Shown here one piece after another: positions 20,886-42,950 of a stretch of DNA of 48,000 nt (its first letter is position 1; each line of letters starts with the position of its first letter). Location of the stretch: positions 8,613-56,612 of the forward strand of contig JBCAWO010000033.1 in assembly GCA_038534515.1 (NCBI GenBank), in the 5' to 3' direction. Origin of the DNA: Cyanobacteria bacterium J06554_1. GTDB lineage: Bacteria > Cyanobacteriota > Cyanobacteriia > Phormidesmidales > Phormidesmidaceae. The notes below the pieces were generated by a model, which worked only from the letters and a program-made list of their open reading frames with translations, did not search any database and was not told the origin of the DNA. The translations under genes and the position numbers were made by a program.

Positions 20886-21890
20886 TCAAGCCCCATAGCC
20901 AAGCCGTACCAGCTGTTCTCCCGCAATCTCATCACACATGGCAATTTCAGCCTCAGACAGATGCTCTTTCCAATCACCCACTGAGCCTGACCTAACATAT
21001 TGCCCATCGCCTTTTTTCGCTACCCGTTTAATATCTGCTGCCGCTACAATTGCGCTCACCTGTGATTCATCCCAGCCCAGGTTGGCAAACTCAAACATCT
21101 GCTGCAAACTTCTCTCCGGATCGGCCTTAAGGGCTTCGTAGCGCACCGTATGAACTCGCGACTGTAGGCTAGGTCGCTCCCTAATGAGCTCGCCCCATTC
21201 CACACATTGCTTCCACTGACGAATTGCGCCCGCTGTGCCTATTTGGGCCCATCGTTCTCGCTTTGCCAGCGCATTGTAGGACACACATACATCTCGTCCA
21301 TCCCGGAGCACCTCAACAATGCGAGCTTCCGGAAACCGGCACAAAATTTGCTCAGCATAGCGAATGTGCATCGGTGTCTTTTCTAAAACTGTTTGACCAG
21401 GTTTACCGTACCGTTTAAAGAAACGATCAAACATCGCTGCAATCAATTCTTCTGCTTGGACCAATCCGCGGTTAGTTTCTAGAACCTCAGCCCGAATTGC
21501 GCTGATGAGTAAGCTGAGCTCCCGATAGCTGACTAATCCATGCAGACCATGGCTATCCGGTCGATTTAAGATCTGGTAGTCCCGTAAGATCCCTGGCCAA
21601 ATGTTTGCAGGTTTGAAGCCAAACAGTAGGGGTTTTAAGCCATAGCGTCGCAAAATTCCCTTCCATGCCCGCAGTCGTTGTTGCCAGTCCCACCTTGGCA
21701 ACTCCACAAATGGCTCATACACCAGTCGATATACATGGGTTTCCCTCGGTACCACCAAAACGTCTGGATGTTGGGCAAGCAAAGATGTTACCCACGAGGT
21801 CCCTGAGCGTGGGCAGCCGACAACAAATAACTTGGGGCAGGGGGACAGTTGACCCATATCAATATGATTACCGATCGCTTGTGTACGCAT
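20886..21890 (-). CDS. PAPS-dependent sulfotransferase family protein
   Basis: A 5'-PSB loop (GCPRSGTSW) and a 3'-PB-like motif (LRDGRDVCVSY) are present. Confidence 0.8.
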   Translation of the reverse strand: MRTQAIGNHIDMGQLSPCPKLFVVGCPRSGTSWVTSLLAQHPDVLVVPRETHVYRLVYEPFVELPRWDWQQRLRAWKGILRRYGLKPLLFGFKPANIWPGILRDYQILNRPDSHGLHGLVSYRELSLLISAIRAEVLETNRGLVQAEELIAAMFDRFFKRYGKPGQTVLEKTPMHIRYAEQILCRFPEARIVEVLRDGRDVCVSYNALAKRERWAQIGTAGAIRQWKQCVEWGELIRERPSLQSRVHTVRYEALKADPERSLQQMFEFANLGWDESQVSAIVAAADIKRVAKKGDGQYVRSGSVGDWKEHLSEAEIAMCDEIAGEQLVRLGYGA

Positions 21891-21974
21891 ATCACAATCA
21901 ATAACAATAAAGTTAGTAAACGGCCCCTTTAATCTTCAATTTTTCTCGGTGATGGAGAAAAATGCCTGTCTGCA

Positions 21975-23141
21975 TTATGGAGACGAGGCTGGAGGATGAG
22001 AGGTTCGTAATCGATGGCCGATACCGATTTCTGTATATACGTCAGTATTCACTGCCGGGGTAGACGTGACCGGATAGATCAACTGACTAAACCGAGCCGC
22101 ACATTGGGCCAGTGTGCGGCTCTGATAGTGGGTCTGGGCATTGTCCGCAATTGCCTGTAATGAGGAGGGTTGAGCAAATTGCTGTAGGGATGATGTCACC
22201 ACGTAGTGATGGTTTGCCACAATGCCATCCTGCGCCCTTAACCCATGGCCGTTACAAATTGGCAGCAGTCCGTGGGAGCAGTAGGCGGCATATACGGTAG
22301 ATTTGGCTAGATTCTGGGGAAACCGTCGATAGTCAAAGATCCCCGCCAGGGACTTAGCCATTAGCTGGCTGATTTCAGGTGCTGATAAAAAGCCTGTTTT
22401 TACCACCGTTACATCCAGTTCCTGGCTGTCCCACTCAACTGGACGCCCCACATCGTAGAGGGTGTCGATCTTGAGTAATTGACAAACCCGATTGATGGTC
22501 TGGAAGTTGTGGCGATAGACGCGGGTGCGATCGCTACTGCCAAATACAATCAACGAACGCTGCCGCTCAGACAGCGGCGGCACATTCCCCAATTCTCCGA
22601 TAGTTGAAAAATTCGGCACACAGTGGACGGGGGCCTCGGTCCACCCAGCTAAGGTTTGCTGAAATGCGGCATTATTCGTCACCACCACATCGGCCACCTG
22701 GGCTAATCCACGGGATACCCGCCGCTGTACAAAGTTAGGACAGCGAATTTGCCTGTAGCGCAGGGTGGGCAGCTCATGAAACATCACCACAATCCGTAAT
22801 CCCCTCTGTTTTAGGCTTTTTAGGGCATCAACCAGCCACATCGGCGTATCTAGTTTGCCCAGCAGATACGGGTAATTACTGTATTGGAGAAAAATAGTTG
22901 ATATATGTTCAGGTACCTGATCAATCAGCCCTTGCGCCGTATGGTGATTGAGCCGATGCACGGCAAACTGATCTAACGTTGGCTGCAGTCGAGGGTTGGG
23001 TCTAAATACCAAGAAGTCTGAAAGAATCTTACTGTGGTCATGCAGCTGGTGAGCCAGCTGTAGAGCATAGTCACCGACACCGTCCACGTCTGGAAAGAGT
23101 CGAGGCACTATTTGTAGAATTCGAGTGGGTTGAGCGGTCAT
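21975..23141 (-). CDS. probable GT-B fold glycosyltransferase (GT4/GT1-like, divergent)
   Basis: The N-terminus (RILQIVPRLFPDVDGVGDYALQLAHQL) resembles GT4 N-termini. VVVTNNA and VPNF segments sit in the expected order. The C-terminal half matches only loosely. Confidence 0.45.
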   Translation of the reverse strand: MTAQPTRILQIVPRLFPDVDGVGDYALQLAHQLHDHSKILSDFLVFRPNPRLQPTLDQFAVHRLNHHTAQGLIDQVPEHISTIFLQYSNYPYLLGKLDTPMWLVDALKSLKQRGLRIVVMFHELPTLRYRQIRCPNFVQRRVSRGLAQVADVVVTNNAAFQQTLAGWTEAPVHCVPNFSTIGELGNVPPLSERQRSLIVFGSSDRTRVYRHNFQTINRVCQLLKIDTLYDVGRPVEWDSQELDVTVVKTGFLSAPEISQLMAKSLAGIFDYRRFPQNLAKSTVYAAYCSHGLLPICNGHGLRAQDGIVANHHYVVTSSLQQFAQPSSLQAIADNAQTHYQSRTLAQCAARFSQLIYPVTSTPAVNTDVYTEIGIGHRLRTSHPPASSP

Positions 23142-23199: not shown

Positions 23200-25701
23200 T
23201 CACCTCAACCCCGCAAGATATTTTTTAACGTGCTCCACCAGCAGCGGTGTTGAACGCTGGTTAAACAAGTTGCCAAAGAAGCCAGGAATTGTTGTTAGCT
23301 CCACGCCATCCTTGGCCACTACCTGCCACCCCAGCTCTCGGCCAAAGTACCAATCCAAAATTTGGATATTTGCACGGAACAGTTTTACTGGCCCTGCATA
23401 GGGCTGGGGGACATAGTGTTTTGCCGCTAACTCATTGGCTTTTTGTGCCCGAGCATAGCGATATTCGTAGGGAACGTTGGTCTGATCTGGTTGCGGTCGG
23501 TCGGTGGTGAGGTTGTCAGGATTGGGGACGTCCATCAAGTTCTGAGGAGAACCCCCATTAGGACTGGTTGGACCGGAGTTGTTATCCCGATTTAGGGGGC
23601 TGCTAGCAGGTACAACCTTTTGCCAAATTTTCTTAGGTAGCGCTGCTAAGTTCTCCCATCCCCCGTGGTAGTAGTAGTTTTTTCGTACCCAGAACACCCC
23701 CAGCTGTAAACGGCTCTGGAGCTTTACCAACAGTGTCTCAGGCAGCTCCCCCGGGCGATAAGAATCGATTAGAACAACACTTTCCACCTCTTCACCCTCG
23801 GTCTGGAGCTGTTGCGCAATCTCAAAGGCCACCGCTCCCCCTAAACAATGGCCTCCGACTAGATAGGGTCCTTTAGGCTGCACCATTCGCATTTCTTTAA
23901 TGCAGTCTGTTGCCAGTGCCTCCACGGTTGTGTGGGTGACCTCACTGCCGTCTAGATCGGGTCGCTGCAGTGCATAAAAAGGGCGCTCGGTGCCCAACAG
24001 CTGGGAGAATCTGGCCCAGGTGAGGGCATCTGCCGAACCGCCGTGGAAAAAGAACGGTAGCCGGGAACCGCTGGTCTGAATGGGCACCAGGCTCGACCAC
24101 TGGGATACGGGCTGCTCCTGACTGAGTAGGGCCGCAAACTGCCGTACATTGGGGGCCTGGAACAATGTTGCCAGGGGTAGGGCACAGTCTAGCTGTTGCT
24201 GCATTTGGTTAAACAACTGCACCGCCAGTAGCGAATTGCCCCCAACATCAAAAAAGTTGTCGTCTACGCTAAGGGGACTTACCCCCAAAACAGATTCCCA
24301 AATTTGAGTTAGCGTTAGCTCCAGTGGATTGCTTGGGGCAAAGAAATTTCCCTCCAGCTGGTCTCGGCTGAGTATGGGCTCAGGGGGGGCTGCCGCTGGT
24401 CGCCTTAGGGGCTGCGGTGGCAAAATCTGAGCAATAGAGCGGTCAGGATTGTCTGTGATGGCTTCTAATACTGTCTGAAATTGTTCTAATAGCGGTGCCA
24501 CAGCCTGAATATGGGAGCTGTCTGAGCGCAGCATGACCGTGAGCCGATGCCCTGGTTTGATAATGACCGTTAGGCCATAGGTGCTCACTAGCCCAGACTG
24601 CAGATTCTCTACCTGAAAACTACGCTCTGTCGCTGGCTGGATTGGGTAGTTTTCAATGACGAGCAGACTGTCAAACAAGCGACCTGACACCTGGCTCCAG
24701 CTCTGAATTTGGTCTGGTGAGGCATAGCCATAGCGACTGGCTTGGGTCTGCTGGGTTTGGAGACTCTGTAGCCACTCAAGTACCGTTTGCTCTGGGGCCA
24801 CCTGTACCCGGACGGGCAGTACGTTGATCAGCAGTCCGACGATGGTGTCTACCCCGGCCAAATCACCCTGGCGGCCTGAAACGGTTGCCCCAAATAGGAC
24901 ATCTGGGTTACCGCTGTAGCTGTGTAAAAGCAGGGCCCAGATGCCCTGCATGAGGGTATTGAGGGTGAGACGGTGCGATCGCAACATCCCCTGCATCCTG
25001 GCCGTCACCTCGGCAGAAAACGTAATGGCGGGAGCCGAAGTATCTGAAACTTTGCTAGTTGCTGGCCCAACGGGCAGCTTTGTTGGCTCCACAAACCCCT
25101 GCAAAGCCCCTTGCCAAAATTCAGCCGCTGCGGCATTGTCTTGCTGCTTTAGCCAGCGAATATAGCTTTGATAGGTGGGCCCGGACGCGACAGGTGCGGG
25201 TTTTCCCTGCCTTAACTGTCCATAGCAATCAAAGACCTGATTAAACACGAGCGCTCCAGACCAGCCATCCAGCATTAAATGGTGGCAGCTCCATATCAGC
25301 TCATAGGCAGTCTCACCCAGGCGAATCAGGGCTAGACGAGAGATGGGGGCTTGGGTCAGCTCAAAACCCAGCTCTCGATCCTGTACCAAAAAGTCTGTCA
25401 AGGCTGTTGTTTGATCGTCTCGACCGCGCCAATCTAGATGGGTCCAGGGAATAGCCGCCTTTCGGGCCACCACCTGCAAGGGCTGTTTTACCCCTTCCCA
25501 ATGCACCGAGGTGCGCAATACGGCCTGTTGACCCACAACAGCGTCCCAAGCCTGCTCCAGTAAAGTTGAGTCCACCTCACCCCGCAGCGTACAGCGCATG
25601 TGAATCAGACCCTCTTTGGCCGAGGTTTGCAAACTGTGCCAGAGAAATGCCTGCTGTAGTGGGGCCAGGGCATAGATGGTTTCGATGTTTTTCTTATCCA
25701 T
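23200..25701 (-). CDS. NRPS terminal module C-T-TE with no A domain
   Basis: The C domain carries HHLMLDGWS at aa 140-148. The carrier domain reads DDNFFDVGGNSLLA, with Ser490. The alpha/beta thioesterase shows PFFFHGG, GGHCLGG and VVLIDSY. A GGAGG Shine-Dalgarno sequence is present, and only 2 nt separate the ATG from the upstream stop. Confidence 0.9.
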   Translation of the reverse strand: MDKKNIETIYALAPLQQAFLWHSLQTSAKEGLIHMRCTLRGEVDSTLLEQAWDAVVGQQAVLRTSVHWEGVKQPLQVVARKAAIPWTHLDWRGRDDQTTALTDFLVQDRELGFELTQAPISRLALIRLGETAYELIWSCHHLMLDGWSGALVFNQVFDCYGQLRQGKPAPVASGPTYQSYIRWLKQQDNAAAAEFWQGALQGFVEPTKLPVGPATSKVSDTSAPAITFSAEVTARMQGMLRSHRLTLNTLMQGIWALLLHSYSGNPDVLFGATVSGRQGDLAGVDTIVGLLINVLPVRVQVAPEQTVLEWLQSLQTQQTQASRYGYASPDQIQSWSQVSGRLFDSLLVIENYPIQPATERSFQVENLQSGLVSTYGLTVIIKPGHRLTVMLRSDSSHIQAVAPLLEQFQTVLEAITDNPDRSIAQILPPQPLRRPAAAPPEPILSRDQLEGNFFAPSNPLELTLTQIWESVLGVSPLSVDDNFFDVGGNSLLAVQLFNQMQQQLDCALPLATLFQAPNVRQFAALLSQEQPVSQWSSLVPIQTSGSRLPFFFHGGSADALTWARFSQLLGTERPFYALQRPDLDGSEVTHTTVEALATDCIKEMRMVQPKGPYLVGGHCLGGAVAFEIAQQLQTEGEEVESVVLIDSYRPGELPETLLVKLQSRLQLGVFWVRKNYYYHGGWENLAALPKKIWQKVVPASSPLNRDNNSGPTSPNGGSPQNLMDVPNPDNLTTDRPQPDQTNVPYEYRYARAQKANELAAKHYVPQPYAGPVKLFRANIQILDWYFGRELGWQVVAKDGVELTTIPGFFGNLFNQRSTPLLVEHVKKYLAGLR

Positions 25702-25703: not shown

Positions 25704-27650
25704 TTAAGCCTCCGCTGTGGGTTGACCGGTGAGCTGCCCAATAAAATCATCTAGCTCGGTTTGGTTAAAATCAGCATCGGGAAAATCAGACGGGGTAAAG
25801 CCACCGCTGGTATCGGTACAGTGGGCGATGAGAGATTTTAACTGGCTGAGGTATTGGTGGGCCAAAGACTGTAGGGTGTCGCTGCGGTGAATCTGTGGGT
25901 CGTAGCGCCAGGTGACCTGTAGCTGTCCATGGGCAACCCAAGCGTTGATTTCCAACAGGTAGCTCCGCTGGTTGTGGGGATCTCTCAGCGTACCCACGTC
26001 AATGTTTTGGAGCACCTGCAGATTGGTGGGGACCTGCTGCCCCAAATAGTTAAACAACACCTCCGATGGTGGGGCCTGGGCCAGACGCTGTTGGGTGGTG
26101 CCATCGTCCAAATAGCGCAAAATGCCATGGCCAATGCCCCGATCGGGTACCTGACGCAGCTGCTCTTTGACTGACTTTAGGGTTTCTACGGTGTCACTAA
26201 CCTGACCGTGCAGGCTGACCGGATAGGTTGTAGTAAACCAACCCACCGTCCGCGACACATCTATGCCAGGGGCAATCGGCTCTCGACCATGGGCTTCTAT
26301 CTCTATGCGGACATTGCCCGTTTCTGCCCCTACCCAATGGAGCAATGTCTGGGTCAGGGCCGTGAGCAGGGCATCGTTAATTTGGGTGTTGTAACTGGCT
26401 GGAACCGTTTGCAATAGTGTTTGGGTGTCTGGTTGGCTCAGGGCAACGGTGACCGTCTGGGCGGTGCCTTCTGTGGGGGGTGGCCCATCTAAGAAATCAC
26501 GGGGTAACTGCACGACAGATTGTTCCACCTGGCCAAACCAAAAGGGGGCTTCGGATTGTCGGGCTGTGACCTGAGCTGTGAGGGTTTCAGCCCAAGCTTT
26601 AAAGGAGGTTGTTTTGGCAGGAGGCTGGGCCGCCCCACCCAACAGAACTGATAGGTCGTCGAGAAGAATTTGCCAGGAGACGGCGTCTACTGCCAAATGG
26701 TGCAGACTCAGCAACAGCCAGTCTTGAGCTGCCCCACGGGTGAAAAGGGCCGTTCGCATCAGTCCGCCGCTGACGAGATTTAGATCGTTGTGCAGGTGAG
26801 TGCCATGGTGGGCGACGGCTTTGAGCTGGTCAGATTCGCCTAGATGGGTGAGGTCTATGGACGTCAGCGCAGGTGGACTGTCGGTATTGGCTATGTGTTG
26901 ATGGTCGTCGAAGCGCAGCCTGAGGGCATCGTGATGGGTCCAGAGCGTTGCGATCGCACCCTCCACATCACCCTTGCTCACCCCCTGAGGCAGCTCCACC
27001 AGCATTGCCTGATGCCAGTGCTGCGGTGCCGCCAAATCTTGCTCAAAGAACCAGGTTTGGATTGGCGTCAGCGGCACCTTTCCCGTCACCAGCTCCTGGG
27101 TGGCTACCACCTCAGGGGCCACATTGACCACAGCGGCCAGTTCCGCCACCGTCGGCTGCTCAAATAGCTGGTTGGGCGCTAGCCGTAACCCCGCCTCCCG
27201 AGCCCGAGACACAATTTGAATACTGAGGATTGAATCTCCCCCCAGCTCAAAAAAGTTGTCATCAATGCCAACAGTCCCTAGCCCCAGCACATCTTTCCAG
27301 ATCTGGACTAACGTCTCTTCTGTCGGAGTCCGGGGGGTAGCCGCATTGGGCATAGCTGCCACCGGCTGCGGTTCAGGCAGGGCATTAGTATCAACCTTGC
27401 CATTGGCGGTTCGTGGCATCTGGGTCAGGGAGACAATCGCTGTGGGCACCATGTAGTTGGGTAGCTTAGCCTTTAGGGCATTCCGCAAGACAACCGCATC
27501 GATCTCTGCCGAACGCCCCACCACATAGGCCACCAGCCGTTGGGAAGACCGATCCGATACCTCCAGCTGCTCTAACTGCTGAGCGAGCGTTTTTCGCTGA
27601 CTGGGTGAGAGGGCCGCCACCCGTTGATGTAGTTCCTGATTTATGGTCAT
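25704..27650 (-). CDS. NRPS fragment A(sub, a9-a10)-T-E
   Basis: The N-terminus (RLVAYVV...LPNYMVPTAIVSL...TANGKVD) corresponds to A-domain motifs a9/a10. It is followed by a T domain (DDNFFELGGDSILS). The epimerase motifs PLTPIQTWFFE, HHLAVDAVSW and EAHGRE are all present. Confidence 0.9.
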   Translation of the reverse strand: MTINQELHQRVAALSPSQRKTLAQQLEQLEVSDRSSQRLVAYVVGRSAEIDAVVLRNALKAKLPNYMVPTAIVSLTQMPRTANGKVDTNALPEPQPVAAMPNAATPRTPTEETLVQIWKDVLGLGTVGIDDNFFELGGDSILSIQIVSRAREAGLRLAPNQLFEQPTVAELAAVVNVAPEVVATQELVTGKVPLTPIQTWFFEQDLAAPQHWHQAMLVELPQGVSKGDVEGAIATLWTHHDALRLRFDDHQHIANTDSPPALTSIDLTHLGESDQLKAVAHHGTHLHNDLNLVSGGLMRTALFTRGAAQDWLLLSLHHLAVDAVSWQILLDDLSVLLGGAAQPPAKTTSFKAWAETLTAQVTARQSEAPFWFGQVEQSVVQLPRDFLDGPPPTEGTAQTVTVALSQPDTQTLLQTVPASYNTQINDALLTALTQTLLHWVGAETGNVRIEIEAHGREPIAPGIDVSRTVGWFTTTYPVSLHGQVSDTVETLKSVKEQLRQVPDRGIGHGILRYLDDGTTQQRLAQAPPSEVLFNYLGQQVPTNLQVLQNIDVGTLRDPHNQRSYLLEINAWVAHGQLQVTWRYDPQIHRSDTLQSLAHQYLSQLKSLIAHCTDTSGGFTPSDFPDADFNQTELDDFIGQLTGQPTAEA

Positions 27651-27729: not shown

Positions 27730-29085
27730 TCATGGTGGACCGACCTCCATCAAATGCCCTGGCTGTTCCCTTAATAAATCTTCCACCAGGTTAACCGCGC
27801 GATTCTTGTGGGTATACGTCACAAAACAGTGACGCATACGCTCCAGGTTTGTTCGATAGCTTCCATCCGTTAGCAATGTGCGAACATGTCCACACACCTG
27901 TGCCGCATCGGTTTGTTTTTGATCGTCTACAATCCCTAGCCCATGGTACGTTACCCGCGCCGCATTGCCATGTTGGTCGGCGCAGCCCAGGGAGTACACC
28001 ACCATCGGCACACCGCAGCTAATACACTCATTAATACTGTTAATGCCGCTGTTGATAATGGCACAGTCAGCCTGCTTAAGCACCTCTAGCTGAGGAGCCC
28101 AGCCAAAGGCATAAACATTTGTCGGGACATTGTCCAATTCAGCTGCCCCCAGACTGCCCCCTAGTCCCAGGACCCAATCCCACTCGGGAGAAGAGGATGC
28201 TGCTGCGATAATCTGTTGCAGAAACTGTTTGTCTGCTTTTGCCAGACTACTCAAACCACAGTAAATCAGAGGGCGTTTGCTACTGGGACGGCGCTCAAAA
28301 ATCTGTTTTAAAGATGGCTCTGTGATTGCAGATGTCTGGGGATGTTCAAACACCATCGGCCCCACATAGCGCATAGACGAGTGGGGCTGGTGGGGAAAGT
28401 CCAGCTCTAATGCGTTCATACAAAGAATCGGTAAAGTCTCACCCGGGTAGGGCACCAGCCACTGTCTAAACCCAAAGCGCAGCCGTAGGGGGAGGCCGAT
28501 CTGTCGGGCATAGCAGCCCAGTACAGAAATCCAATCGAGACCCACTCGCCGCCACCGTTCCTGTTGAAACTCTTTCCATTTTGTCAGGCCATAGCAGAGC
28601 CAGCTCCATTCAATCCCCAGGCGGGAACCTGGCCAGCCTTGCCCTGGAATCGTTTTGGTGTGAATCGGAGGTAGATTGGGGCGCTTCCAAACCGATAAAA
28701 ACGGACATAGCAACGCCACCGGCAGCTGTTCCACGACGGCTGCCATAATGTGTGGATGCATTTCAATATCTAGAAGCAACAGATCGGGAGCCAGCCCTTG
28801 CACGGTATCTATAAAGTGCTGTATCCCCAGGGCATCCACCGCCCGCTGTTGCCGCTGTTGTTGTAAACGCACCTTGGCCCATCGCCCCATGGGTGGTTCC
28901 CCCAGCTGCATCACCCAGCGCTCCAGCTGCACATAGGGAATTCCCTGGGCTGTTACCGGTTTACTCAGATCGGCCGGGCTAGCATAGGTAACCCGATGCC
29001 CAGCCCGGTGTAGCTGCTGTATTAGGGCCAAACTGGCGTTGAGAATCCCCGTTAGTCCTCCGGTGATGCAGACAATGTGGGCCAT
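27730..29085 (-). CDS. GT1-family (UDP-glycosyltransferase / MGT-like) glycosyltransferase
   Basis: The canonical GT1 N-terminus is HIVCITGGLTGILNASLALIQQLHRAGHRVTY. A UDPGT-signature-like stretch (GWAPQLEVLKQADCAIINSGINSINECISCGVPMVV...DQHGNA) is present. Its own GGGAGGGG Shine-Dalgarno sequence lies upstream, and its ATG is 1 nt after the upstream TAG. Confidence 0.85.
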   Translation of the reverse strand: MAHIVCITGGLTGILNASLALIQQLHRAGHRVTYASPADLSKPVTAQGIPYVQLERWVMQLGEPPMGRWAKVRLQQQRQQRAVDALGIQHFIDTVQGLAPDLLLLDIEMHPHIMAAVVEQLPVALLCPFLSVWKRPNLPPIHTKTIPGQGWPGSRLGIEWSWLCYGLTKWKEFQQERWRRVGLDWISVLGCYARQIGLPLRLRFGFRQWLVPYPGETLPILCMNALELDFPHQPHSSMRYVGPMVFEHPQTSAITEPSLKQIFERRPSSKRPLIYCGLSSLAKADKQFLQQIIAAASSSPEWDWVLGLGGSLGAAELDNVPTNVYAFGWAPQLEVLKQADCAIINSGINSINECISCGVPMVVYSLGCADQHGNAARVTYHGLGIVDDQKQTDAAQVCGHVRTLLTDGSYRTNLERMRHCFVTYTHKNRAVNLVEDLLREQPGHLMEVGPP

Positions 29086-29086
29086 G

Positions 29087-35700: not shown

Positions 35701-37437
35701 GCTATCCTCCACCATAAAGCGGGTGCGCTCTACCGGATAGGCCGGATCAATGGGCAGATAGGCAGCCCCCGCTTTTAGAATAGCTAGAATGCTGACAATC
35801 ATGGAGACTGAACGCTCCATGAACAGACCCACGGTTACACCTTTCTGGATGCCCTGTTTACCTAGATAGTGGGCCAGCTGATTAGCTTGTGCATTTAGCT
35901 CAGCGTAGGTGAGGATTTGCTTGCCAAGCACCACCGCTATTTGGTCAGGTGCAAGATCTACCTGCTGCTGAAACCGTCCTACCAGGGTTTGAGTATATCT
36001 GAGGGTCTCTTTTCTTTGATCACTTGCCAACGCCTGGCCCGACCCAAACAGCAAGGCTCGCTCTTCTGCAGCCAGAATATCTACCGCTTCAATTTCCTGG
36101 TGCGCATCGTCTAGCCAAGCATCCAACAGGTTATAAAAGTGTTCAGTTGCCCACTGACGTTGCGTATCAGCAATTAAATCGCTATTAAAATCAAACTGCA
36201 GTGTGAAACTTCCGGTGGCATCAAAGTCCTGCACCTCTAGCCGCAGATGGTGCTGGCTGTCTCCATACCCTGAATGAATCCAGTCTGTTTTGACTGGCAT
36301 GCCATAAAACTCGGGAAAAGTAACGTTGATGTAGCTGAGAACAACATTGACATCGCGGCTAATGCCATGGTGACTGACACCGGACTGGGCATAGCGCAAA
36401 AATGCCATGGACTCCCTGGCCACCTTGCCTAAAAGCGAGGTAAAAGTTTCCCCTGGTTCAATGTCCACCTGGAGTGGAAACAGCTCCATAAAGACTCCCG
36501 GTGTCTCTTTTAGAACCGGTGTTGGTCGATTATGGGCTGGGGCGGCAATGGCTAGTTTATGGCTGCCACTGATTCGATACAGATAGGCAAACACCAGGGT
36601 TAAAAACAGATTGAACTGGGACTGATGAATGGATAATGTTCGAGCTTCTGGGGTTTTGGCTAAGGCTCGTAACGCCTCAGATCGCTCTGGCCCTAGTTCA
36701 AAATAGGTGCGTTCTGTGCGAGCGGTGGCTACCTCTGCTGTCTGGCCATTCTGACCATACAGGGGCACTGACGATGGTATGTGCTCTCGTTTCTGTTGCC
36801 AATGGGTGATGGCCTGCCACGCTGGCTGCTGTTCTGACTCAGCATAGTGAAGAAAGGCGGGCAGGTCAGCGGCTGTCGCCAATGTACCGGTTAGCGATTG
36901 GCCATAGTATTCCTGTAACCGTCGGTAGAGCAGTGAAACCGACCAGTTATCGGTAATTAAGTGATGCTGATTTAAATACCAAATAAACCGATCCGACGAT
37001 AGTTTTAGCAGTGCCGAATCAAATAAACAATCTTGCAGGTTTAGCAGACAGGTGGAACGCTGCTGCATCCATGTCTGTGATGCCTGGATAGGATCTATAT
37101 CTGTAGAAAAATCTATAACTGGAAGCAAATAGTTTGATGTGGCAGCGACCGTCTGCTGCGGAACACCGTCCGCCTCGGTGATGGTCAGACGGAGAATATC
37201 GCTATGGGCTACTAAGGCTTGAAATGCCCGTTGGAAGTGGGCAGGGTCAATCTCTCCTTGGATGGTGAAACTAAACACCATGTTGTACAGGGGAGCCTTT
37301 GGGTTGAGCTTTTGGCCCAACCATAGCAGCAGCTGCCCCGGCGTCAGGTTGGATTTTGCTGCCAGGGTATCAATCTGTTGGCCTAATCCTTTGGACTGAC
37401 CTTTGGACTGACCCTTGGACTGACTATCCGGCACCAT
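32761..37437 (-). CDS. NRPS module C(starter-type)-A-T-E
   Basis: The C domain reads LTPGQLLLWLGQKL...HHLITDNWS. A motifs are LAYILFTSGSTGQPKGV, FDVSVWE, NGYGPTE, YKTGDQARY, GRLDHQVKIRGFRVELREVE, LPDYMVPTAF and NGKVDR. The T domain is DNFFDLGGDSITA. E motifs are PLTPIQQSFFE, HHLAVDGVSW and EGHGRE. Confidence 0.95.
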   Translation of the reverse strand: MVPDSQSKGQSKGQSKGLGQQIDTLAAKSNLTPGQLLLWLGQKLNPKAPLYNMVFSFTIQGEIDPAHFQRAFQALVAHSDILRLTITEADGVPQQTVAATSNYLLPVIDFSTDIDPIQASQTWMQQRSTCLLNLQDCLFDSALLKLSSDRFIWYLNQHHLITDNWSVSLLYRRLQEYYGQSLTGTLATAADLPAFLHYAESEQQPAWQAITHWQQKREHIPSSVPLYGQNGQTAEVATARTERTYFELGPERSEALRALAKTPEARTLSIHQSQFNLFLTLVFAYLYRISGSHKLAIAAPAHNRPTPVLKETPGVFMELFPLQVDIEPGETFTSLLGKVARESMAFLRYAQSGVSHHGISRDVNVVLSYINVTFPEFYGMPVKTDWIHSGYGDSQHHLRLEVQDFDATGSFTLQFDFNSDLIADTQRQWATEHFYNLLDAWLDDAHQEIEAVDILAAEERALLFGSGQALASDQRKETLRYTQTLVGRFQQQVDLAPDQIAVVLGKQILTYAELNAQANQLAHYLGKQGIQKGVTVGLFMERSVSMIVSILAILKAGAAYLPIDPAYPVERTRFMVEDSNVAILLTQQALMATCPVGQLKDRIICLEPHGDAIAQEPTGAPAVELTAQDLAYILFTSGSTGQPKGVMVEHRNVLAMVNGFEQTAPAGEQLRGTALCSYGFDVSVWEIFSNLCFGGTVYLVPPETVASHNQFAQYLITHDITSAYIPPALLSMVVQELERSDHKIVLNRILVGVEPIQQKLLQRYRQRIPQLRIVNGYGPTETTVCATFYAFNTVTDPQGIVPIGKAVPGYEVYVVNDQGQQVPMGIKGEIVIGGAGLSRGYLNRPELMAERFIENPFGAGKLYKTGDQARYLPDGNLEFLGRLDHQVKIRGFRVELREVEAALNQHPSIQQGVVIAEKTNQGRQSLLAYVVTSESSLTHGEIRDALQQTLPDYMVPTAFILLDYLPLTPNGKVDRPLLSSPDYTQRQRLGTDRDYVAPGNEWETHLAAIWAQCLRIESVGIYDNFFDLGGDSITAIQIAAQATEAGLPLSPQQILQHLTVAGVLAQIKSTQLLGADQVHTTDQVPLTPIQQSFFEQNLTEPHHWNQSLLLDVAQALDPSALETALQHLVQRHNILSCQFILGESGWQQRQGIPGRLLNYVDLSHRSVVSQDRAMAATEADLQTSLDLTTGKLVQAALFNLGDNRPNRLLLIIHHLAVDGVSWLMLLNDLETAYRQTQGEKVARALPTMSFQTWSTELGKTVSSGAFQSELAYWLGTAKGAVPPLPKDNARISADNRVASAHTLTTCLTVEQTHRLLRELPKVARARVNEILLTALARSLCNQTNQLLLDLEGHGREEAIVPGANLVRTVGWFTTVFPLLLTLPQTDAGEQLRSVKEQVRQVPRNGIGYGLLRYLGGDPEVKAQLEAQPQPDILFNYLGDLAGLVPPGSMFQLARGLELSRSPQGQRRYLLEVNAAVVRGQLQVEWTYGQRHRRETIQGWAEGMMRGVRSQITHYLSPESKQDTTITPVDFPLANLDRQKLGKIAALLNRSGSQSDSGG
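37388..37423. repeat. three tandem 12-bp units encoding (QSKG)3 at the NRPS N-terminus
   Basis: The units read cctttggactga cctttggactga cccttggactga. They lie just inside the 5' end of the 32761..37437 CDS and abut the carrier-protein stop at 37424. Confidence 0.8.
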
Positions 37438-37711
37438 GGCTGATTCTCCCCATTAGATACTGATCAATGGCTTCAATGGTGCGAAAGTGTTGAATCGTAA
37501 TGTCTTCTAGGGGGACCTTAAGGGCAAAGGTCTCTTCGACAAAAGCAACTAGCCGCATCATCCCCAGGGAGTCGATGATCTCTCCCACCAGCAGATCGTC
37601 GTCAGCTTCGACCTGCATACGGCCATTGAGTAGAACATCACTGATGTAGGTTTGGAGCACTGACTGATGGTTGGCACTTTCTTGGGGCTGAACAGGTTGA
37701 GTGGTTGTCAT
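37424..37711 (-). CDS. free-standing acyl/peptidyl carrier protein
   Basis: The 95-aa product starts at the internal ATG at 37711, preceded by an AGGAGA Shine-Dalgarno sequence. The phosphopantetheine site is IIDSLGMMRLVAFVEE. The 153-aa tracked ORF extends upstream into the preceding gene and is unlikely to be real. Confidence 0.85.
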   Translation of the reverse strand: MTTTQPVQPQESANHQSVLQTYISDVLLNGRMQVEADDDLLVGEIIDSLGMMRLVAFVEETFALKVPLEDITIQHFRTIEAIDQYLMGRISHGAG

Positions 37712-37721: not shown

Positions 37722-37753
37722 CTGGGGCTAGATGGGCTAGATGGGCTAGATAG
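37722..37753. repeat. ~3.5 tandem 9-bp units (gatgggcta) at the A-domain/carrier-protein junction
   Basis: The sequence reads ctggggcta gatgggcta gatgggcta gatag. On the minus strand every unit contains TAG, and one of these is the stop of the 37746..39365 CDS. Confidence 0.75.
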
Positions 37754-39365
37754 TTGAGGGTTCACGGGATTCGGCGGCGGATTGCAGTCGGGCAATGGCC
37801 TGGGTTTGTAAGGTGCGCCGGTCGATTTTGCCGCTGGTGGTGCGGGGAAAGGAGGTTGCGATCGCAACCCTTTCCGGCACCGCATAGGCAGGCAATCGTT
37901 GCGCCGCCTGGCGTTTTAGCTCAGCCTCATCCAGCCCCCCATCCGGTTTCAAAATCACCGCCGCCTCAATCTGTTGGCTGCCCCCCGCCAGGGGCACCCC
38001 ATAGGCCGCCGCTTCTTCTACCTGGGGGTGCCCCACCAATGCCGCTTCCACCTCATCTAGCTCGATGCGATAGCCCCGCGTTTTAATCTGCCGGTCCTTG
38101 CGACCCACAAACTGATAGTTACCATCCGGCAGCTGCTGCACCAAATCCCCCGTGCGATAGAACACCGCCATTTGATGGGCCATCTCAGTCCGGTAGAAAA
38201 CTCGCTCATTTAGGTCGGGTCGCTGCCAGTAGCCGTTCATCATGGTGGGGGTGCGCACCAGCAGTTCACCCACCTCCCCAGACGCCACTAGCTGGTCCTG
38301 GTCGTCCACCACGCGCTCTTCCGCGTTGGCCCAAATTTGGCCAATGGGGGCAACTTCTTCTGGGATGGCCCGTCCATTTTTCAGCGGCGGCACGTGGTAA
38401 TAGCTGCACTGATTGATTTCTGCCGGGCCATACACATTACTAAAACGTGCCTGGGGTAGGCGCTCCATGAGGCCATACATGTACTTTGCCGGGTAGGGCT
38501 CACCGCCAAACAGCACCCATCGCAGCGAGCTCAGGTCTCTCTCATCTAACACGCCCCGTAACAACAGCTGGATCAGGGCAAACGGTACTGAATACCAGAC
38601 GGTTAATGCTTCATCCTGGGCCAGCTGAGAGAGACTGGCGGGCATCTTGGTATAGGCTTCAGGAATAATCACCGTGGTTGCCCCCACCAGCGGCCCTGAG
38701 AAGTAGTCGAGGGTGGACATATCAAAGTGCAGGGGCGAGTGGTTGCCCAGGCAATCTGTATGGGTCAAACCGTAGGTTTGGGCGGCCATGCGCGCATAGC
38801 TGAGACCGCTGCGATGGGTGTGCATAATTCCCTTGGGGGTGCCCGTAGACCCCGAGGTATACATAATGTAGGCCAGGTCTTGCTCCATCACGCGGACAGG
38901 GGGCGACGTGTCACTAGGGAGAATGTTTGGCCAGTCGCGACGCTGTACCGAGCGCGGCAAGGTAAAACTCTCTGGTAGCCCAATGATGCAGTTTAATTTG
39001 GGGGCGGCTGTCAGCAGATCCGACATCCGCATCCGCTTAGACTTTTGGGTAATCAGGTGGCGGATGCCGCAGTGGTCAAGGGTATAAGCCGTGCGGGCTA
39101 ACGGCGCACTGGGATCTAACGGTACATAGGCAGCCCCAGCTTTCCAGATGCCGTAAATGGCGACGGCACTCTCCAGACTCTTACTCAGGTAAATGCCTAC
39201 CCGGTCTCCCCGCTGTACCCCCAGGTCAATCAGGGTATGGGCCAGGCCATTTGCCTGTTGTAACAGTTCGCCATAGGTAAGACGTTTCCCCTCACAGCGA
39301 AACGCTTCGCGTTCAGAAAACTGTTCGGCGGAACGGTCTAAAATGTGAGACAACAAATACATCAT
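37746..39365 (-). CDS. stand-alone adenylation enzyme (amino-acid/DltA-like A domain)
   Basis: Motifs present are LTYGELLQQANGLA, LAYIMYTSGSTGTPKGI, HFDMS, NVYGPAE, YRTGDLV, GRKDRQIKTRGYRIELDEVE and TTSGKIDRR. There is no fused carrier domain. Confidence 0.85.
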   Translation of the reverse strand: MMYLLSHILDRSAEQFSEREAFRCEGKRLTYGELLQQANGLAHTLIDLGVQRGDRVGIYLSKSLESAVAIYGIWKAGAAYVPLDPSAPLARTAYTLDHCGIRHLITQKSKRMRMSDLLTAAPKLNCIIGLPESFTLPRSVQRRDWPNILPSDTSPPVRVMEQDLAYIMYTSGSTGTPKGIMHTHRSGLSYARMAAQTYGLTHTDCLGNHSPLHFDMSTLDYFSGPLVGATTVIIPEAYTKMPASLSQLAQDEALTVWYSVPFALIQLLLRGVLDERDLSSLRWVLFGGEPYPAKYMYGLMERLPQARFSNVYGPAEINQCSYYHVPPLKNGRAIPEEVAPIGQIWANAEERVVDDQDQLVASGEVGELLVRTPTMMNGYWQRPDLNERVFYRTEMAHQMAVFYRTGDLVQQLPDGNYQFVGRKDRQIKTRGYRIELDEVEAALVGHPQVEEAAAYGVPLAGGSQQIEAAVILKPDGGLDEAELKRQAAQRLPAYAVPERVAIATSFPRTTSGKIDRRTLQTQAIARLQSAAESREPSTI

Positions 39366-39367: not shown

Positions 39368-40516
39368 CTAAAGCCCCAACGAACGCGCAATAATGTTGCG
39401 CTGAATATCTGAGGTGCCTGCATAAATCACCCCGCCGATGGCATCTCGCAGGTCCCGCTCTACCTCATATTCAGTGAGATAACCATTGCCCCCGTGGATG
39501 CGCACTGCGTCTAGCCCCGACGCCACAAAACACTCGCTGAGATATAGCTTGAGTAGGGCCGCCTCTAGCATAGCGGGCTGTCCGTGTTCTTTGAGCCACG
39601 CCACCTTGTACAGCAGCAGCCTGGCGGTTTCCAGCCGCAGTTTCATATCAGCCACCCGGTTTGACACCGACTGAAACTTACCAATGGGCTGACCATACTG
39701 CTCCCGTGACTTGGCATAGTCGATGGTTTTCTCGAGCTGACGCTCCATTGTCCCCAGCTCGCTGGCCAGGTTAAAACAGCGGTCGTATTCTAATGAGTTG
39801 TGGGAGAAGCTAAACCCTGCCCCCTCTGGCCCCAGCCGATTTTCTGCGGGCACAAAACAGTTCTCAAAGAAAATCTCCCCAAAGGGCACTGTCCGTAGCC
39901 CCATTTTGTCCTTGACGGGACCGGTGGAAAATCCATCGGACGAACGCTCCACTAGAAAAGCGGTTACCCCCCATTTACCCAGGCTAGGGTCAACGGTGGC
40001 AAAGACTAAGGCCAAATCACAGATGGGGGCACAGGTAACAAACTTTTTGCTGCCGTTGAGCACATAGCCGCCGTCACACTTGTTGGCCTGGGTTTTTAGA
40101 CTGTAAACATCTGACCCAGCATTGGGCTCAGACAGGGCATGCACCCCAATCCACTCGCCGTTACACAGCCGTGGCAGATATTTCTGCTTTTGCTCGTCTG
40201 TCCCAAACTGTTGCAGTAAAATTTGGACCGTCCACATCTGGGCATTAAGACCCAGGGTGAGGCCATTGTCTTCACAGCCGTAGCCCAGGGCCTCCATGGC
40301 CAGCACCGCCGTCATAATATCCAGGGCTGGGGAACCGCTATATTCCTCTGGAATACACATGCCCTGGATACCAAACTCAGCACACTTTTTCCAGTTCTCC
40401 CAGGAAAATTTGCCGTGGTGGTCCCGTTCGACAATATCGCCATTCAGGTTTTCTTGCGCAAACTGAATCACGCGCTGCTTAAAAGCAAGTTGTTTATCTG
40501 ACCAGGAGAAATCCAT
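39368..40516 (-). CDS. acyl-CoA dehydrogenase-family flavoprotein (candidate aminoacyl-S-carrier-protein dehydrogenase)
   Basis: The ACAD-like N-terminus is MDFSWSDKQLAFKQ. Other matching stretches are ALSEPNAGSD, GSKKFVT and the C-terminal YAGTSDIQRNIIAR. The tracked ORF starts at TTG 40558, but the ATG at 40516 fits the family N-terminus better. Confidence 0.85.
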   Translation of the reverse strand: MDFSWSDKQLAFKQRVIQFAQENLNGDIVERDHHGKFSWENWKKCAEFGIQGMCIPEEYSGSPALDIMTAVLAMEALGYGCEDNGLTLGLNAQMWTVQILLQQFGTDEQKQKYLPRLCNGEWIGVHALSEPNAGSDVYSLKTQANKCDGGYVLNGSKKFVTCAPICDLALVFATVDPSLGKWGVTAFLVERSSDGFSTGPVKDKMGLRTVPFGEIFFENCFVPAENRLGPEGAGFSFSHNSLEYDRCFNLASELGTMERQLEKTIDYAKSREQYGQPIGKFQSVSNRVADMKLRLETARLLLYKVAWLKEHGQPAMLEAALLKLYLSECFVASGLDAVRIHGGNGYLTEYEVERDLRDAIGGVIYAGTSDIQRNIIARSLGL

Positions 40517-40564
40517 TTTCAGTGTTGGGGTGGGGCAGTTAGGAGTCAGGTGAGGCAAGAAAAA

Positions 40565-41665
40565 CTACAGAACAAAGCTGTAGGGATTTTGGGATTCGGC
40601 GGCGCTTTCTAACTCCACCAACGTGCCGATGTCTAATTCGGTGGCGTAGTCTAACAGCATGTTCATGGCCACCTGATCTTCGAGGGCAAATCCTGTGGAA
40701 TCAAAGACGGTCGGCTGTTGCTGATGGTGACGATACTGGTCTGGTTTTTTAACTACGTTAGATAGCTCGTCCCCAATTTTTGTTAGGTCCTTAAGCTGCT
40801 GACATTCTCCCTCACGAATGGCCTGATCTCGAAAGTCAGGGCACACAAAACTGCGCTCTAAAAGACTCAAGGGCACCTCAAACTTACCGGGAAAATCTGC
40901 TCCGACCGCGTTGACGTGGAGCCAGGGTTTGAGGTTTTGGTCGGGAAAAACAGGACCGTTGTTTACATTGACCGAGGTGGCGGTACAGAGAATATCGGCC
41001 GTGGCAACAATGTCAGCTATCTCTGCCTGGCGGATTGTCAGATGGTCTAAGCCCAAACAGGCAACGCGCTCAGAAAATGACTGACTGACCGCCCCATCGC
41101 TGTCAAAAATGAGCACCTGGGTGAGGTCAAAGCAGCGGGAGAGCGCGTGGAGCTGGGTTACCGCCTGGGCTCCTGCACCAATGAGACCGAGGGTTTGGCT
41201 GCTGGGGGAGGCCAAGTGTTGGGTTGCGATCGCAGACGCTGCCCCCGTTCGTAATGCCGTCAAGAACGTACCATCAATCACAGCTGCCAAATGGCCCGAT
41301 GCCGGATCATAGGCGGAAACCGTAGACAGCACCGTTGGTAGGCTATGTAAGCTCGGATTTTGAGGATGATAGCCCACCGCTTTAACTACAATCTGCCGAT
41401 ATTTCTCAAACAACGGCATCCACTCCACCAGCCCCATATGGGGACGGTCATAGCTAAACCCGGTTCTTACGGGCACCACAGTTTTAGTCGGATCAAACTG
41501 TTCAAAGGCATGGATGAGTCGAGCAATCATCTCATCCATGAGCCCATCTAACCCCACGTGCTCAACAATCAGCCGAATATCCTCAACCGAAAGCACCAGG
41601 GTTTTTAATCGCGGCGTAGACGCCACAACAGCATTAATCGCACTAGTTTGTGCCAAAGAAACCAT
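40565..41665 (-). CDS. ornithine cyclodeaminase / mu-crystallin family enzyme
   Basis: The 366-aa product has the NAD Rossmann motif LGLIGAGAQAVTQLHAL. The surrounding pattern (DGTFLTALRTGAASAIAT, NAVGAD) is typical of OCD and lysine cyclodeaminase. Confidence 0.8.
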   Translation of the reverse strand: MVSLAQTSAINAVVASTPRLKTLVLSVEDIRLIVEHVGLDGLMDEMIARLIHAFEQFDPTKTVVPVRTGFSYDRPHMGLVEWMPLFEKYRQIVVKAVGYHPQNPSLHSLPTVLSTVSAYDPASGHLAAVIDGTFLTALRTGAASAIATQHLASPSSQTLGLIGAGAQAVTQLHALSRCFDLTQVLIFDSDGAVSQSFSERVACLGLDHLTIRQAEIADIVATADILCTATSVNVNNGPVFPDQNLKPWLHVNAVGADFPGKFEVPLSLLERSFVCPDFRDQAIREGECQQLKDLTKIGDELSNVVKKPDQYRHHQQQPTVFDSTGFALEDQVAMNMLLDYATELDIGTLVELESAAESQNPYSFVL

Positions 41666-41726
41666 GAGAAAACTGTTCGATAAATAGCTGCTTACAACCG
41701 TGACGCGTCTGCCCCGTTAACAGGGT

Positions 41727-42950
41727 CTAAAACAGACCTTGCAGCACCGGTAAAACGCGAATATTGATACCAAATGCCCGCTCAATAAACCAGTAGAGCG
41801 ACATTGCTCCCAACAGCAAAGCACCTGTTTTCATGACAACGCTGGGATAAAATTTCTGCCTACGCAATAAATAGAGCACAGGAAAGACCACCGCAATAAT
41901 TGCCAGCTGCCCAATTTCCACCCCTAAATTAAACCCAAACAGAGACAGCAGCGGATACTGACTGGTAACTCCAAGTTTGGTCAGTACATCGGCAAAGCCA
42001 AAGCCATGGAATAGCCCAAAGAGAAAAATAATAAACCATGAACGACCCCGAAAAATAGGGTAGAAAATATCCACAGCCGCTAATCCAATCGACGCGGCAA
42101 CGACTGATTCCACTATTCTGGAAGGAACCTGTACCAGCTGCAGTGTGGCCAAGCCAAGCGTAATGCTATGGGCAACCGTAAAGGCAGTCGCAACCTTAAT
42201 AATATAGATAAGCGACGTTGAGAATTTACCCACCGGTTGCCACCTTGAGTCTTCCTGTCGTCGTAGCACTGATGGCAACAGCAGAGCTACCAAAAAAAGA
42301 ACGTGATCAATACCTTTTATAATGTGGAGAATCCCAAGGTTAACGATGGCTGAGAAACCTTGCCATAACCCCCCAGATGAAAGATCTAAGGTCTGGGTTT
42401 GCCCCGGCTGCCTAAAGATCATCAGTGGATTAGACTCATTCTGAAACGTACCCGTTTTCCAGTTCTCTTCCACCAGTAACATATTAGTGTGCTGCGGCAG
42501 CTGTTCTAGAATTACATCGTAGGTAACATCGATGGCGCTCGGCAATACTTGAAACCCTTCTAAGTCATACTCCAGCAGCAAAAACTGAGAAAATGTTGTA
42601 TTCAGAAACCGAAAGTCTTGAAAAACCAGATCGCAGGTTTCTGGAGCACAATCCAGAGTGACATTCTCATCTACATAGGTTTTAATCTGCTCCATGTGAG
42701 GAGCTATGGCCTCCTTACTAACTTTTTTGTCAGCCGGTAGATCTAGCTCAAGCACCTGGGTAAGCTCCTTAACAGGCATCTCCACCCTGGCTGATATAGC
42801 ATCTTCCCTAATCTGGAAATATATGTAGCTTTGACCCAAATTGTGTGCTGTTGTAGCAGGCACCAGAGACGGGCTAAAAATGCATAGTAAACACGCCAAG
42901 ATTGCAAGTACAGTCCTGGCCGCAGTCGAGCGCATCAGCTTATTAAGCAT
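41727..42950 (-). CDS. HupE/UreJ_2-like membrane protein with an N-terminal extracytoplasmic domain
   Basis: A signal/TM segment and a ~190-aa soluble domain are followed by a polytopic region containing GIDHVLFLVALLLP and HGFGFA. The tracked ORF starts at TTG 42995. I prefer the ATG at 42950. Confidence 0.5.
   Translation of the reverse strand: MLNKLMRSTAARTVLAILACLLCIFSPSLVPATTAHNLGQSYIYFQIREDAISARVEMPVKELTQVLELDLPADKKVSKEAIAPHMEQIKTYVDENVTLDCAPETCDLVFQDFRFLNTTFSQFLLLEYDLEGFQVLPSAIDVTYDVILEQLPQHTNMLLVEENWKTGTFQNESNPLMIFRQPGQTQTLDLSSGGLWQGFSAIVNLGILHIIKGIDHVLFLVALLLPSVLRRQEDSRWQPVGKFSTSLIYIIKVATAFTVAHSITLGLATLQLVQVPSRIVESVVAASIGLAAVDIFYPIFRGRSWFIIFLFGLFHGFGFADVLTKLGVTSQYPLLSLFGFNLGVEIGQLAIIAVVFPVLYLLRRQKFYPSVVMKTGALLLGAMSLYWFIERAFGINIRVLPVLQGLF

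Follow-up and report, generated by a model that had tools for sequence, protein, structure and literature searches.

How can a nonribosomal peptide synthetase (NRPS) work when one of its adenylation (A) domains is encoded in two pieces, on either side of a complete glycosyltransferase gene? The question is raised by a 48,000-nucleotide (nt) stretch of DNA from Cyanobacteria bacterium J06554_1 (GenBank assembly GCA_038534515.1, contig JBCAWO010000033.1, positions 8,613 to 56,612; the whole stretch is hereafter referred to as the window), which carries an NRPS cluster of 13 minus-strand open reading frames (ORFs) running from 42995 to 20886, with adjacent genes −14 to +84 nt apart (two start codons adjusted). 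Condensation (C), A, thiolation (T), epimerization (E) and thioesterase (TE) domains are present with their core motifs (HHxxxD(G/N), A4/A5/A8/A9/A10, GGxS, HHLAVDxVSW and E[GA]HGRE) and are arranged as modules, and a Pfam scan of the cluster ORFs supports each domain assignment except that of a 388-residue ‘GT-B’ protein, whose match is sub-threshold. A preliminary description of this DNA had reported thirteen co-directional, closely packed genes encoding a capped NRPS with a split A domain, two glycosyltransferases, a methyltransferase and a sulfotransferase; the coordinates and Pfam matches agree with the domain order that it gave, with gaps of 84 nt or less, and its structural statements all hold. 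Here we argue that the locus is probably a functional NRPS cluster belonging to a widespread, uncharacterised cyanobacterial family, the invariant core of which would be a histidine module with an A domain split between the A8 and A9 motifs.

A putative histidine module with a split adenylation domain

The first half of the split domain resides in a 929-residue C–Acore protein (29087..31876), which contains motifs A1 to A8 and in which Pfam detects Condensation and AMP-binding domains without AMP-binding_C. Motifs A9 (LPNYMVP) and A10 (NGKVD) open a separate 648-residue protein, Asub–T–E (25704..27650; Pfam AMP-binding_C, PP-binding and Condensation), and the break therefore falls between A8 and A9. 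C–Acore stops 27 residues past its A8 motif, KIRGYRIELGEIE, and its TAG stop codon precedes the ATG of the next gene by 1 nt, with a Shine–Dalgarno-like GGAGG within the last C–Acore codons, as read directly from the DNA of the junction (GAGGGAGGGGAA TAG C ATG; 29083..29102). This next gene (27730..29085) encodes a GT1-family glycosyltransferase (GT; Pfam UDPGT and EryCIII-like_C, NCBIfam MGT subfamily), and is separated from the Asub–T–E gene by a 79-nt non-coding spacer. Nine of the ten residues of the specificity code (D-S-A-L-V-A-E-V-W) sit on C–Acore, and since A10 is encoded in Asub–T–E, the catalytic A10 lysine sits on a different polypeptide from the nine remaining pocket residues. Because the parts are separate polypeptides, delimited by the TAG stop, a separate ATG and the 79-nt gap before Asub, the domain is not an interrupted A domain.

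The junction is similarly tight elsewhere: gene calls place C–Acore 1–2 nt from the next gene in the related loci L001, L003, L005, L011, L013, L015 and L016 (relatives are denoted by L numbers), and in L014 the two overlap by a few bases. Motifs A9 and A10 are conserved, as are a helical tail that ends C–Acore (29090–29176; conserved in seven orthologues) and an N-terminal helix of Asub–T–E (27558–27650) with the consensus LxQRVxxLSPSQRxxLAQxL; we infer that these tail and head helices are candidate docking helices. Compared with L018, which has about 90% protein identity to the window, the ratio of nonsynonymous to synonymous substitution rates (dN/dS) is 0.15 for C–Acore, 0.20 for the GT, 0.19 for Asub–T–E and 0.05–0.16 for the other genes. 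The values of 0.15 and 0.19 indicate that both halves are under purifying selection. Collectively, the sequence features lead us to infer that a histidine-activating A domain would be reassembled in trans from C–Acore and Asub–T–E.

A conserved gap with variable contents

Relatives were found with the GT as a probe and delineated by gene calls and tblastn mapping. The split with a nested GT occurs in 27 loci, a number that includes the window and in which some loci are probably from the same species; these are all of the GT homologues with at least 44% identity for which both flanks are visible. Eight further loci, each with one visible flank, are consistent with a nested GT. The carriers include the isolate Leptolyngbya sp. 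PCC 7375, Dapis sp. BLCC M126, a Crocosphaera metagenome-assembled genome (MAG), Phormidesmis MAGs and TARA Oceans contigs, and the ORFs are called as separate genes in NCBI, ENA, TARA, Logan and JGI assemblies as well as in PCC 7375. GT homologues with 43% identity or less (L012, L036 and L038–L052) are not nested. A minimal set comprising an acyl-CoA dehydrogenase (ACAD)-fold enzyme, a stand-alone A enzyme, a carrier protein (CP), C–A–T and the GT is found in two non-nested loci, and a methyltransferase (MT) gene follows in L049. A pattern scan of genome contigs yielded at least four loci. When the 105-residue Asub head served as the query, giant multi-module NRPSs, ranked by summed scores, filled all of the best 150 places, and this search thus gave no count of proteins that start with Asub.

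The contents of the gap vary. The GT stands alone in the window, L003, L009, L011, L014–L019 and others. An MT gene and then the GT occupy the gap in L001, L007, L021, L025 and L033, and the GT is followed by an MT gene in L020, by a Stf0-type sulfotransferase (ST) gene in L005, L027 and L031, by a Sulfotransfer_1-type ST gene in L022, and by both MT and ST genes in L013, L023 and L024. The nested MT and ST proteins are not orthologues of the window's own MT and ST, with identities ranging from none to 23%, which argues that tailoring genes were recruited independently to the same gap. On the evidence of these comparisons, the split A domain with a GT inside is a conserved hallmark of a widespread cyanobacterial cluster family and not a local oddity.

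One further candidate was set aside. The Nitrospirales MAG locus L010 (17805–21360) encodes Acore, an MT ORF, Asub–T and then a TubC-docking C–T–TE protein. It was not counted as a split A domain because, in this long-read MAG, the ORFs overlap one another and the C–T–TE protein is only 27% identical to that of the window; it could be another split A domain or the product of frameshifts in the long-read assembly.

Predicted residue specificity and stereochemistry

The ten specificity residues of each A domain were extracted by a motif rule with position 278 placed manually, a procedure that was checked on a relative, in which the module-1 code, DLTKIGEVGK, equals the published albicidin/Asn code. 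The first module of the window is a 1,558-residue C–A–T–E protein (32761..37437; domains by Pfam) with the code DVWYLGGVCK, and the split domain has the code DSALVAEVWK, with DSALIAEVWK or DSASIAEVWK in its orthologues. The preliminary description had derived the same two codes by hand and recognised neither; our re-derivation gave identical codes, and both turn out to be nearly identical to published ones. A 2025 survey of 2,051 A domains lists DSALIAEVWK as a His code, and DVWYLGGICK and DVFYLGGVCK as Met codes (PMC12283262). The His-module code of the window differs from the listed code by one change, I to V, and the module-1 code is identical to each of the two Met codes at nine of ten positions. 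As each thus lies one residue from a published code, we read them as Met and His.

Both internal modules contain the E-domain motifs HHLAVDxVSW and E[GA]HGRE. The C domains that follow the E domains begin with the N-terminal sequences YPLSPVQQGMLFH and YALAPLQQAFLWH, exactly as quoted in the preliminary description, whose statement that two E domains are each followed by a DCL-type C domain is thus borne out by motifs in the sequence. Together with the Met and His codes, the two E domains predict D-Met and D-His in the product.

In many relatives (L001:1005–6479, L013:797–6385, L012:5173–9360 and L049:2794–6975, and also L007 and L008), the code of the module-1 A domain is that of Asn, DLTKIGEVGK, and about 340–400 residues, with a weak match to QueC/PP-loop ATPases, are inserted in frame between A8 and A9. 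The albicidin synthetase AlbIV has been described with a similar insertion and is thought to convert Asn to β-cyanoalanine, an analogy that suggests nitrile-containing peptides in cyanobacteria and Bacteroidota. The Met module of the window lacks an AlbIV-like insertion.

A probable proline-derived cap

Upstream of module 1 lie four genes that resemble a proline-activating cassette. The first encodes an ornithine cyclodeaminase family enzyme (40565..41665; Pfam OCD_Mu_crystall, 1.5e-59), whose best NCBIfam match, ornithine cyclodeaminase, is below the cut-off; the gene is present in the Dapis locus L005 and absent in L009 and L011. The second encodes an ACAD-fold protein (39368..40558; three ACAD Pfam domains), the best PDB match of which, over residues 14–396, is AnaB, the prolyl-ACP dehydrogenase of the anatoxin-a pathway (4IRN; E = 1.2e-132, 446 bits). 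PigA-type enzymes (304 bits) and butyryl-CoA or true acyl-CoA dehydrogenases (about 290 bits or less, in the PDB) are weaker matches, and the top NCBIfam matches, PigA and RedW, both fall under their equivalog cut-offs. The protein is thus nearer to the AnaB/PigA type of prolyl-carrier-protein dehydrogenase than to acyl-CoA dehydrogenases.

The third gene encodes a stand-alone A enzyme (37746..39365; Pfam AMP-binding and AMP-binding_C). Its highest scores against the PDB come from LgrA, where they add up over two A domains; among single-domain matches, PltF, an L-proline-[carrier protein] ligase, ranks first (281 bits). Stand-alone proline enzymes have the consensus L(L/F)YLALVC (PMC3874040). 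The window enzyme has the code D-MLYLGVQC-K, whose eight variable positions show four identities and three conservative changes relative to this consensus, and the corresponding code of the relatives, ILYLAIQC, has five of eight identities. The fourth gene encodes a free-standing carrier protein (37424..37711; Pfam PP-binding, 1.2e-4), with the serine present in IDSLG at 37562–37576; a carrier-protein gene follows the stand-alone A gene in all relatives. In the Crocosphaera locus L013, the carrier-protein gene is directly preceded by an IS605 OrfB-type transposase (1–281), at the position where other loci have the stand-alone A and ACAD genes.

The module-1 C domain shares 40% identity with the C domain found after ACAD–A–CP in a Saprospiraceae genome and in a seawater contig. 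This identity ties the first C domain to the cassette and supports a proline-derived N-terminal cap, putatively made by an AnaB/AnaC/AnaD-like proline cassette.

Terminal module and thioesterase

The last module is an 833-residue C–T–TE protein (23200..25701; domains by Pfam) with an intact HHxxxDG motif and carrier serine, and without an A domain. The best PDB match of its TE domain is AB3403 (4ZXH). The nucleophile is cysteine (GGHCLGG, 23836–23856), and an aspartate (LIDSY) lies 27 residues later. The Cys, Asp and Phe features of this TE (Phe in the motif PG[FL]FGNLFNQ) do not vary among eight orthologues or among any of the close homologues from the database (16 database homologues were aligned), and since distant homologues with a serine nucleophile keep the catalytic histidine, the Cys and Phe changes go together. 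In L015 and L016, Asub–T is followed directly by TE, with no E domain and no C–T, and a cis A–T loading module replaces the proline cassette. Our guess is that the stand-alone proline enzyme also loads the last T domain, on the weak ground that the A-less C–T co-occurs with that enzyme. Release assisted by the imidazole of the peptide itself is a speculation.

The missing A domain opens a different reading, in which the proline cassette supplies the C-terminal residue on C–T–TE, possibly by way of a Cys ‘TE’ that acts like the aminoacyl transferases SyrC and CmaE, with the module-1 C domain N-acylating or idle. We regard this as unlikely, although the last T domain has no cognate A domain, a Cys nucleophile that lacks a His partner looks less like a hydrolase than like a transfer enzyme, and C–T–TE co-occurs with ACAD–A–CP and is missing in the Asub–T–TE variants L015 and L016, which show no cassette. 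That co-occurrence may simply reflect lineage, however, and the C domain after the carrier protein is kept with the cassette even in L012 and L049, which both lack C–T–TE. Furthermore, a prolyl unit that has been oxidised to an imine or a pyrrole offers no acylatable amine with which to serve as an acceptor, and if the TE domain were a transferase, no other release domain would be left.

Tailoring enzymes and an associated permease

The GT1 protein within the split keeps its nucleotide-sugar binding motifs. A second glycosyltransferase is encoded by the gene for the 388-residue protein (21975..23141) downstream of TE, a position at which it is found in nearly all relatives. A profile of this protein had no match among PDB sequences, and its Pfam match is sub-threshold (E = 0.0046), as noted above; its AlphaFold model (pLDDT 87), however, matches the GT4 enzymes PimA, PimB' and MshA with a Foldseek probability of 1.0, and nine of ten orthologues weakly match Glyco_transf_4. 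The fold match sustains the earlier ‘GT-B’ label despite the sub-threshold Pfam score. A sugar aminotransferase gene of the DegT/DnrJ/EryC1 type follows the GT4-like gene in L011 (17503–18666), L014 (12813–13958), L015 (9811–10944) and L016 (8833–9966), and the products of these loci are accordingly predicted to contain an amino sugar; no such gene occurs in the window.

The S-adenosylmethionine-dependent MT (31855..32700; Pfam Methyltransf_23/31/25/11) is encoded between module 1 and C–Acore, with orthologues at the same position in L003, L017 and L018. The last gene of the cluster encodes a sulfotransferase (20886..21890; Pfam Sulfotransfer_3, 1.5e-30, and Sulfotransfer_1, 4.2e-19) with a PRSGTS loop for 3′-phosphoadenosine-5′-phosphosulfate and a weak NCBIfam match to the carbohydrate sulfotransferase NoeE; orthologues are present in L001, L003, L007, L017, L018, L025, L030 and L033. 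An imidazole N-glycoside is possible in the product, a suggestion that we draw, as an assumption, by analogy with the theonellamides.

The first cluster gene encodes a membrane protein of the HupE/UreJ_2 type (41727..42995; Pfam PF13795, 1.8e-42; PF04955, 2.7e-4, below the cut-off). The protein has the HupE/UreJ fold family match together with FHGFGFA and the His/Asp signature HxxxGxDH (HIIKGIDH), which in HupE/UreJ permeases is the essential Ni-binding motif. The motifs are conserved in full-length orthologues, and the partial proteins of L009 and L011 show FHGFGFA alone. A gene of this type lies at the head of the cluster, or divergent from it, in L005, L009, L011 and L020, giving linkage in at least five loci, and at the corresponding place the Saprospiraceae relative encodes a TonB-dependent receptor. 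An X–X–His peptide, offering an N-terminal ring nitrogen, two amides and an imidazole, may be a Ni/Cu metallophore handled by the linked HupE/UreJ-type permease.

Proposed pathway and alternative explanations

These assignments suggest the following pathway. The cyclodeaminase would convert ornithine to proline, which the stand-alone A enzyme, as its code and its similarity to PltF suggest, would load onto the free carrier protein, and the AnaB-like flavoenzyme would oxidise the prolyl group to pyrroline-5-carboxyl or on to pyrrole-2-carboxyl. The first C domain would take the oxidised prolyl unit as the N-terminal cap and join it to Met, which would then be epimerised. The second C domain would join this chain to His, activated by the A domain reassembled in trans, to which the Asub–T–E protein would contribute the catalytic A10 lysine, and the His would in turn be epimerised. 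The C–T–TE module would add one more unit, loaded in trans, and the chain would be released through a Cys-acyl intermediate. GT1, the GT4-like enzyme, the sulfotransferase and the methyltransferase would decorate the peptide, and they would most likely act on the His residue and its sugar, given that tailoring genes cluster in and around the His module in every relative.

Several points weigh against this scheme. The Met and His assignments are predictions from one comparative paper and a motif-based extraction of the codes, and the DCL types were assigned from N-terminal motifs alone. The sequence of the dehydrogenase fits both AnaB-type oxidation (two electrons, giving pyrroline-5-carboxyl) and PltE/PigA-type oxidation (four electrons, giving pyrrole-2-carboxyl). 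No loader for the last T domain is visible within the cluster, no β-hydroxylase is found among the cluster genes, and the TE domain has Phe at the site of the catalytic His (PGFFGNLFNQ, 23257–23286, versus PGDH in AB3403).

The split might itself be a working device, in which the tail, the head and the tailoring enzymes form one complex, for on-line modification of carrier-bound His or for gating of A-domain reassembly. This reading would explain the repeated recruitment of non-orthologous tailoring genes to one gap, and we consider it an outside chance.

Could the GT gene instead have disrupted an NRPS gene, leaving a decaying relic without a product? A stop codon inside an A domain, a last module without an A domain and a TE without its catalytic His might be read in this way. 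Yet the ORFs are all intact, the split is kept across lineages whose GTs are 44–86% identical to that of the window, and A9, A10 and the tail helices are conserved, as are, strictly, the Cys/Phe motifs of the TE. The preliminary description had itself raised the prospect of silent relics; dN/dS values of 0.05–0.20 for every gene, both halves included, rule out decay, and the corallorazine proteins Crz1 and Crz2 show that such a split can work. We therefore judge a relic very improbable.

Still less credible is an assembly or frameshift artefact that conceals a single C–A–GT–A–T–E polypeptide, interrupted in cis. The A8/A9 boundary is the classical site for in-frame auxiliary domains, and relatives have an in-frame insertion at this very site of module 1; in the split domain, however, C–Acore ends cleanly at TAG, the ATG that follows after 1 nt has a Shine–Dalgarno-like sequence, and a 79-nt non-coding gap precedes Asub. 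Moreover, the same separate ORFs recur in the isolate PCC 7375 and in the NCBI, ENA, TARA, Logan and JGI assemblies, and some loci place as many as three distinct genes between the halves.

Genomic surroundings

The cluster differs in composition from its flanks, with a G+C content of about 0.52–0.565 over most of its length (22001–40000) and 0.43–0.50 in the flanks (1–8000 and 42001–48000), a contrast that either horizontal acquisition or NRPS codon composition could account for. Neither tRNAs nor flanking repeats that might mark an island were found. Promoter and terminator scans returned site numbers no higher than in shuffled sequence. The preliminary description had noted the lack of an MbtH-like protein, a phosphopantetheinyl transferase and an ABC exporter; in agreement with this, no MbtH-like motif occurs in the six frames of the window, and no phosphopantetheinyl transferase or ABC transporter is present among the ORFs scanned with Pfam, which comprise all cluster genes but not every ORF of the window.

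A DUF4440/SnoaL-like protein is encoded 112 nt downstream of the sulfotransferase gene (20381–20773), followed by a 98-residue ORF without a family (19979–20275); neither is conserved in relatives, and they were not counted in the cluster for that reason. Directly downstream on the minus strand (11398–19969) are genes for a GAF histidine kinase, two hybrid Cache/HAMP/PAS histidine kinases and a single-domain response regulator, which are probably unrelated, as they are not conserved beside the cluster in relatives. A Fur-family regulator (3236–3697) and a P1B-type heavy-metal ATPase with an HMA domain (8390–10639) lie 10–17 kb from the cluster and are relevant only to the metallophore idea.

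Comparison with known systems

Like aeruginosins and aeruginosides, the predicted product is a short cyanobacterial peptide with a D-residue, glycosylation and sulfation, but membership of that family is scarcely conceivable: the thirteen genes include neither a gene of the AerD/E/F type for 2-carboxy-6-hydroxyoctahydroindole (Choi) formation nor an A–ketoreductase–acyl carrier protein module for loading hydroxyphenyllactate (Hpla), the module order differs, and the predicted residues are Met and His behind a proline-derived starter. The preliminary description had likewise set the cluster apart from this family, by the missing Choi and Hpla genes and the module order.

Sulfazecin biosynthesis uses a D,D-dipeptide, a trans-acting sulfotransferase and a Cys thioesterase. 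A similar monobactam logic here, with sulfation of a T-bound residue and a Cys TE closing a strained ring, has a negligible chance of being correct: two E domains, a sulfotransferase and a Cys TE do occur together, and a gene of the OCD/SbnB superfamily is present, but the last module has no A domain, a 2,3-diaminopropionate-type A domain and an SbnA partner are absent, the cyclodeaminase scores 182 bits as such and 69 as SbnB (SbnB cut-off, 327), the TE lacks the His of a Cys–His–Asp triad, and many relatives either lack the sulfotransferase or have members of unrelated families instead. In the TE of AB3403 from Acinetobacter baumannii, as in that of the window, Cys replaces Ser in GxSxG; AB3403 keeps its catalytic His (PGDH), whereas the window family has Phe there. 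ObiF and SulM are further thioesterases with a Cys nucleophile.

The cap-forming genes resemble AnaB/AnaC/AnaD, PltE/PltF/PltL, PigA and RedW in combining a stand-alone proline A enzyme, a small carrier protein and an ACAD-fold dehydrogenase. In those systems the prolyl unit goes to a polyketide synthase or a halogenase, whereas in the window it would go to an NRPS C domain, and a cyclodeaminase is linked.

Interrupted A domains, such as those of AlbIV and MtaG/MelG, share the A8/A9 site and likewise place a tailoring function within the A domain of the residue to be modified. Their auxiliary domains are in frame, whereas the window encodes the inserted function as an independent gene, set off by stop and start codons, and the A domain must therefore reassemble non-covalently.

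No product or characterised cluster for this family was found in the open-access literature searched, MIBiG lying outside that scope, and to this extent the ‘orphan’ status claimed earlier stands. The A8/A9 break is stable over many cyanobacterial lineages and accommodates between one and three entire genes. Among marine benthic cyanobacteria the family is common; its cultured carriers include Leptolyngbya PCC 7375 and PCC 6406, Heron Island J, LEGE 11479, Dapis, Coleofasciculus and Lusitaniella, and the prediction of a proline-derived cap, D-Met, D-His, hexose(s), SO3 and CH3 is concrete enough for liquid chromatography–mass spectrometry. Two other oddities open to testing are the thioesterase with Cys but no His and the linkage to a HupE/UreJ permease. 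For NRPS engineers, the family offers a natural, selected split site with candidate docking helices, and it prompts one to ask whether modules physically recruit tailoring enzymes by such an arrangement.

The closest precedent is Crz1/Crz2 of the corallorazine pathway in Corallococcus coralloides, in which an A domain split at A8/A9 is active in vitro only when both proteins are mixed (RSC Chem Biol 2024, PMC11342130). In 2024 this natural split was described as unique to one myxobacterial system (PMC11342130), and it is the only published natural split A domain that our literature search found. As in the window, the A8/A9 break lies on two ORFs, and the small subdomain stands at the N terminus of the next protein, followed by T. 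In Crz1/Crz2, however, an N-methyltransferase domain is fused to Acore and the genes are adjacent, whereas here one to three free-standing GT, MT or ST genes lie between the halves. The window family, moreover, has conserved helical tails on both halves, would activate His rather than Gly, and is represented by about two dozen cyanobacterial loci. Thus, the window appears to hold a genuine orphan cluster, with a predicted product that is new and an architecture that varies on the recently described rarity of Crz1/Crz2.

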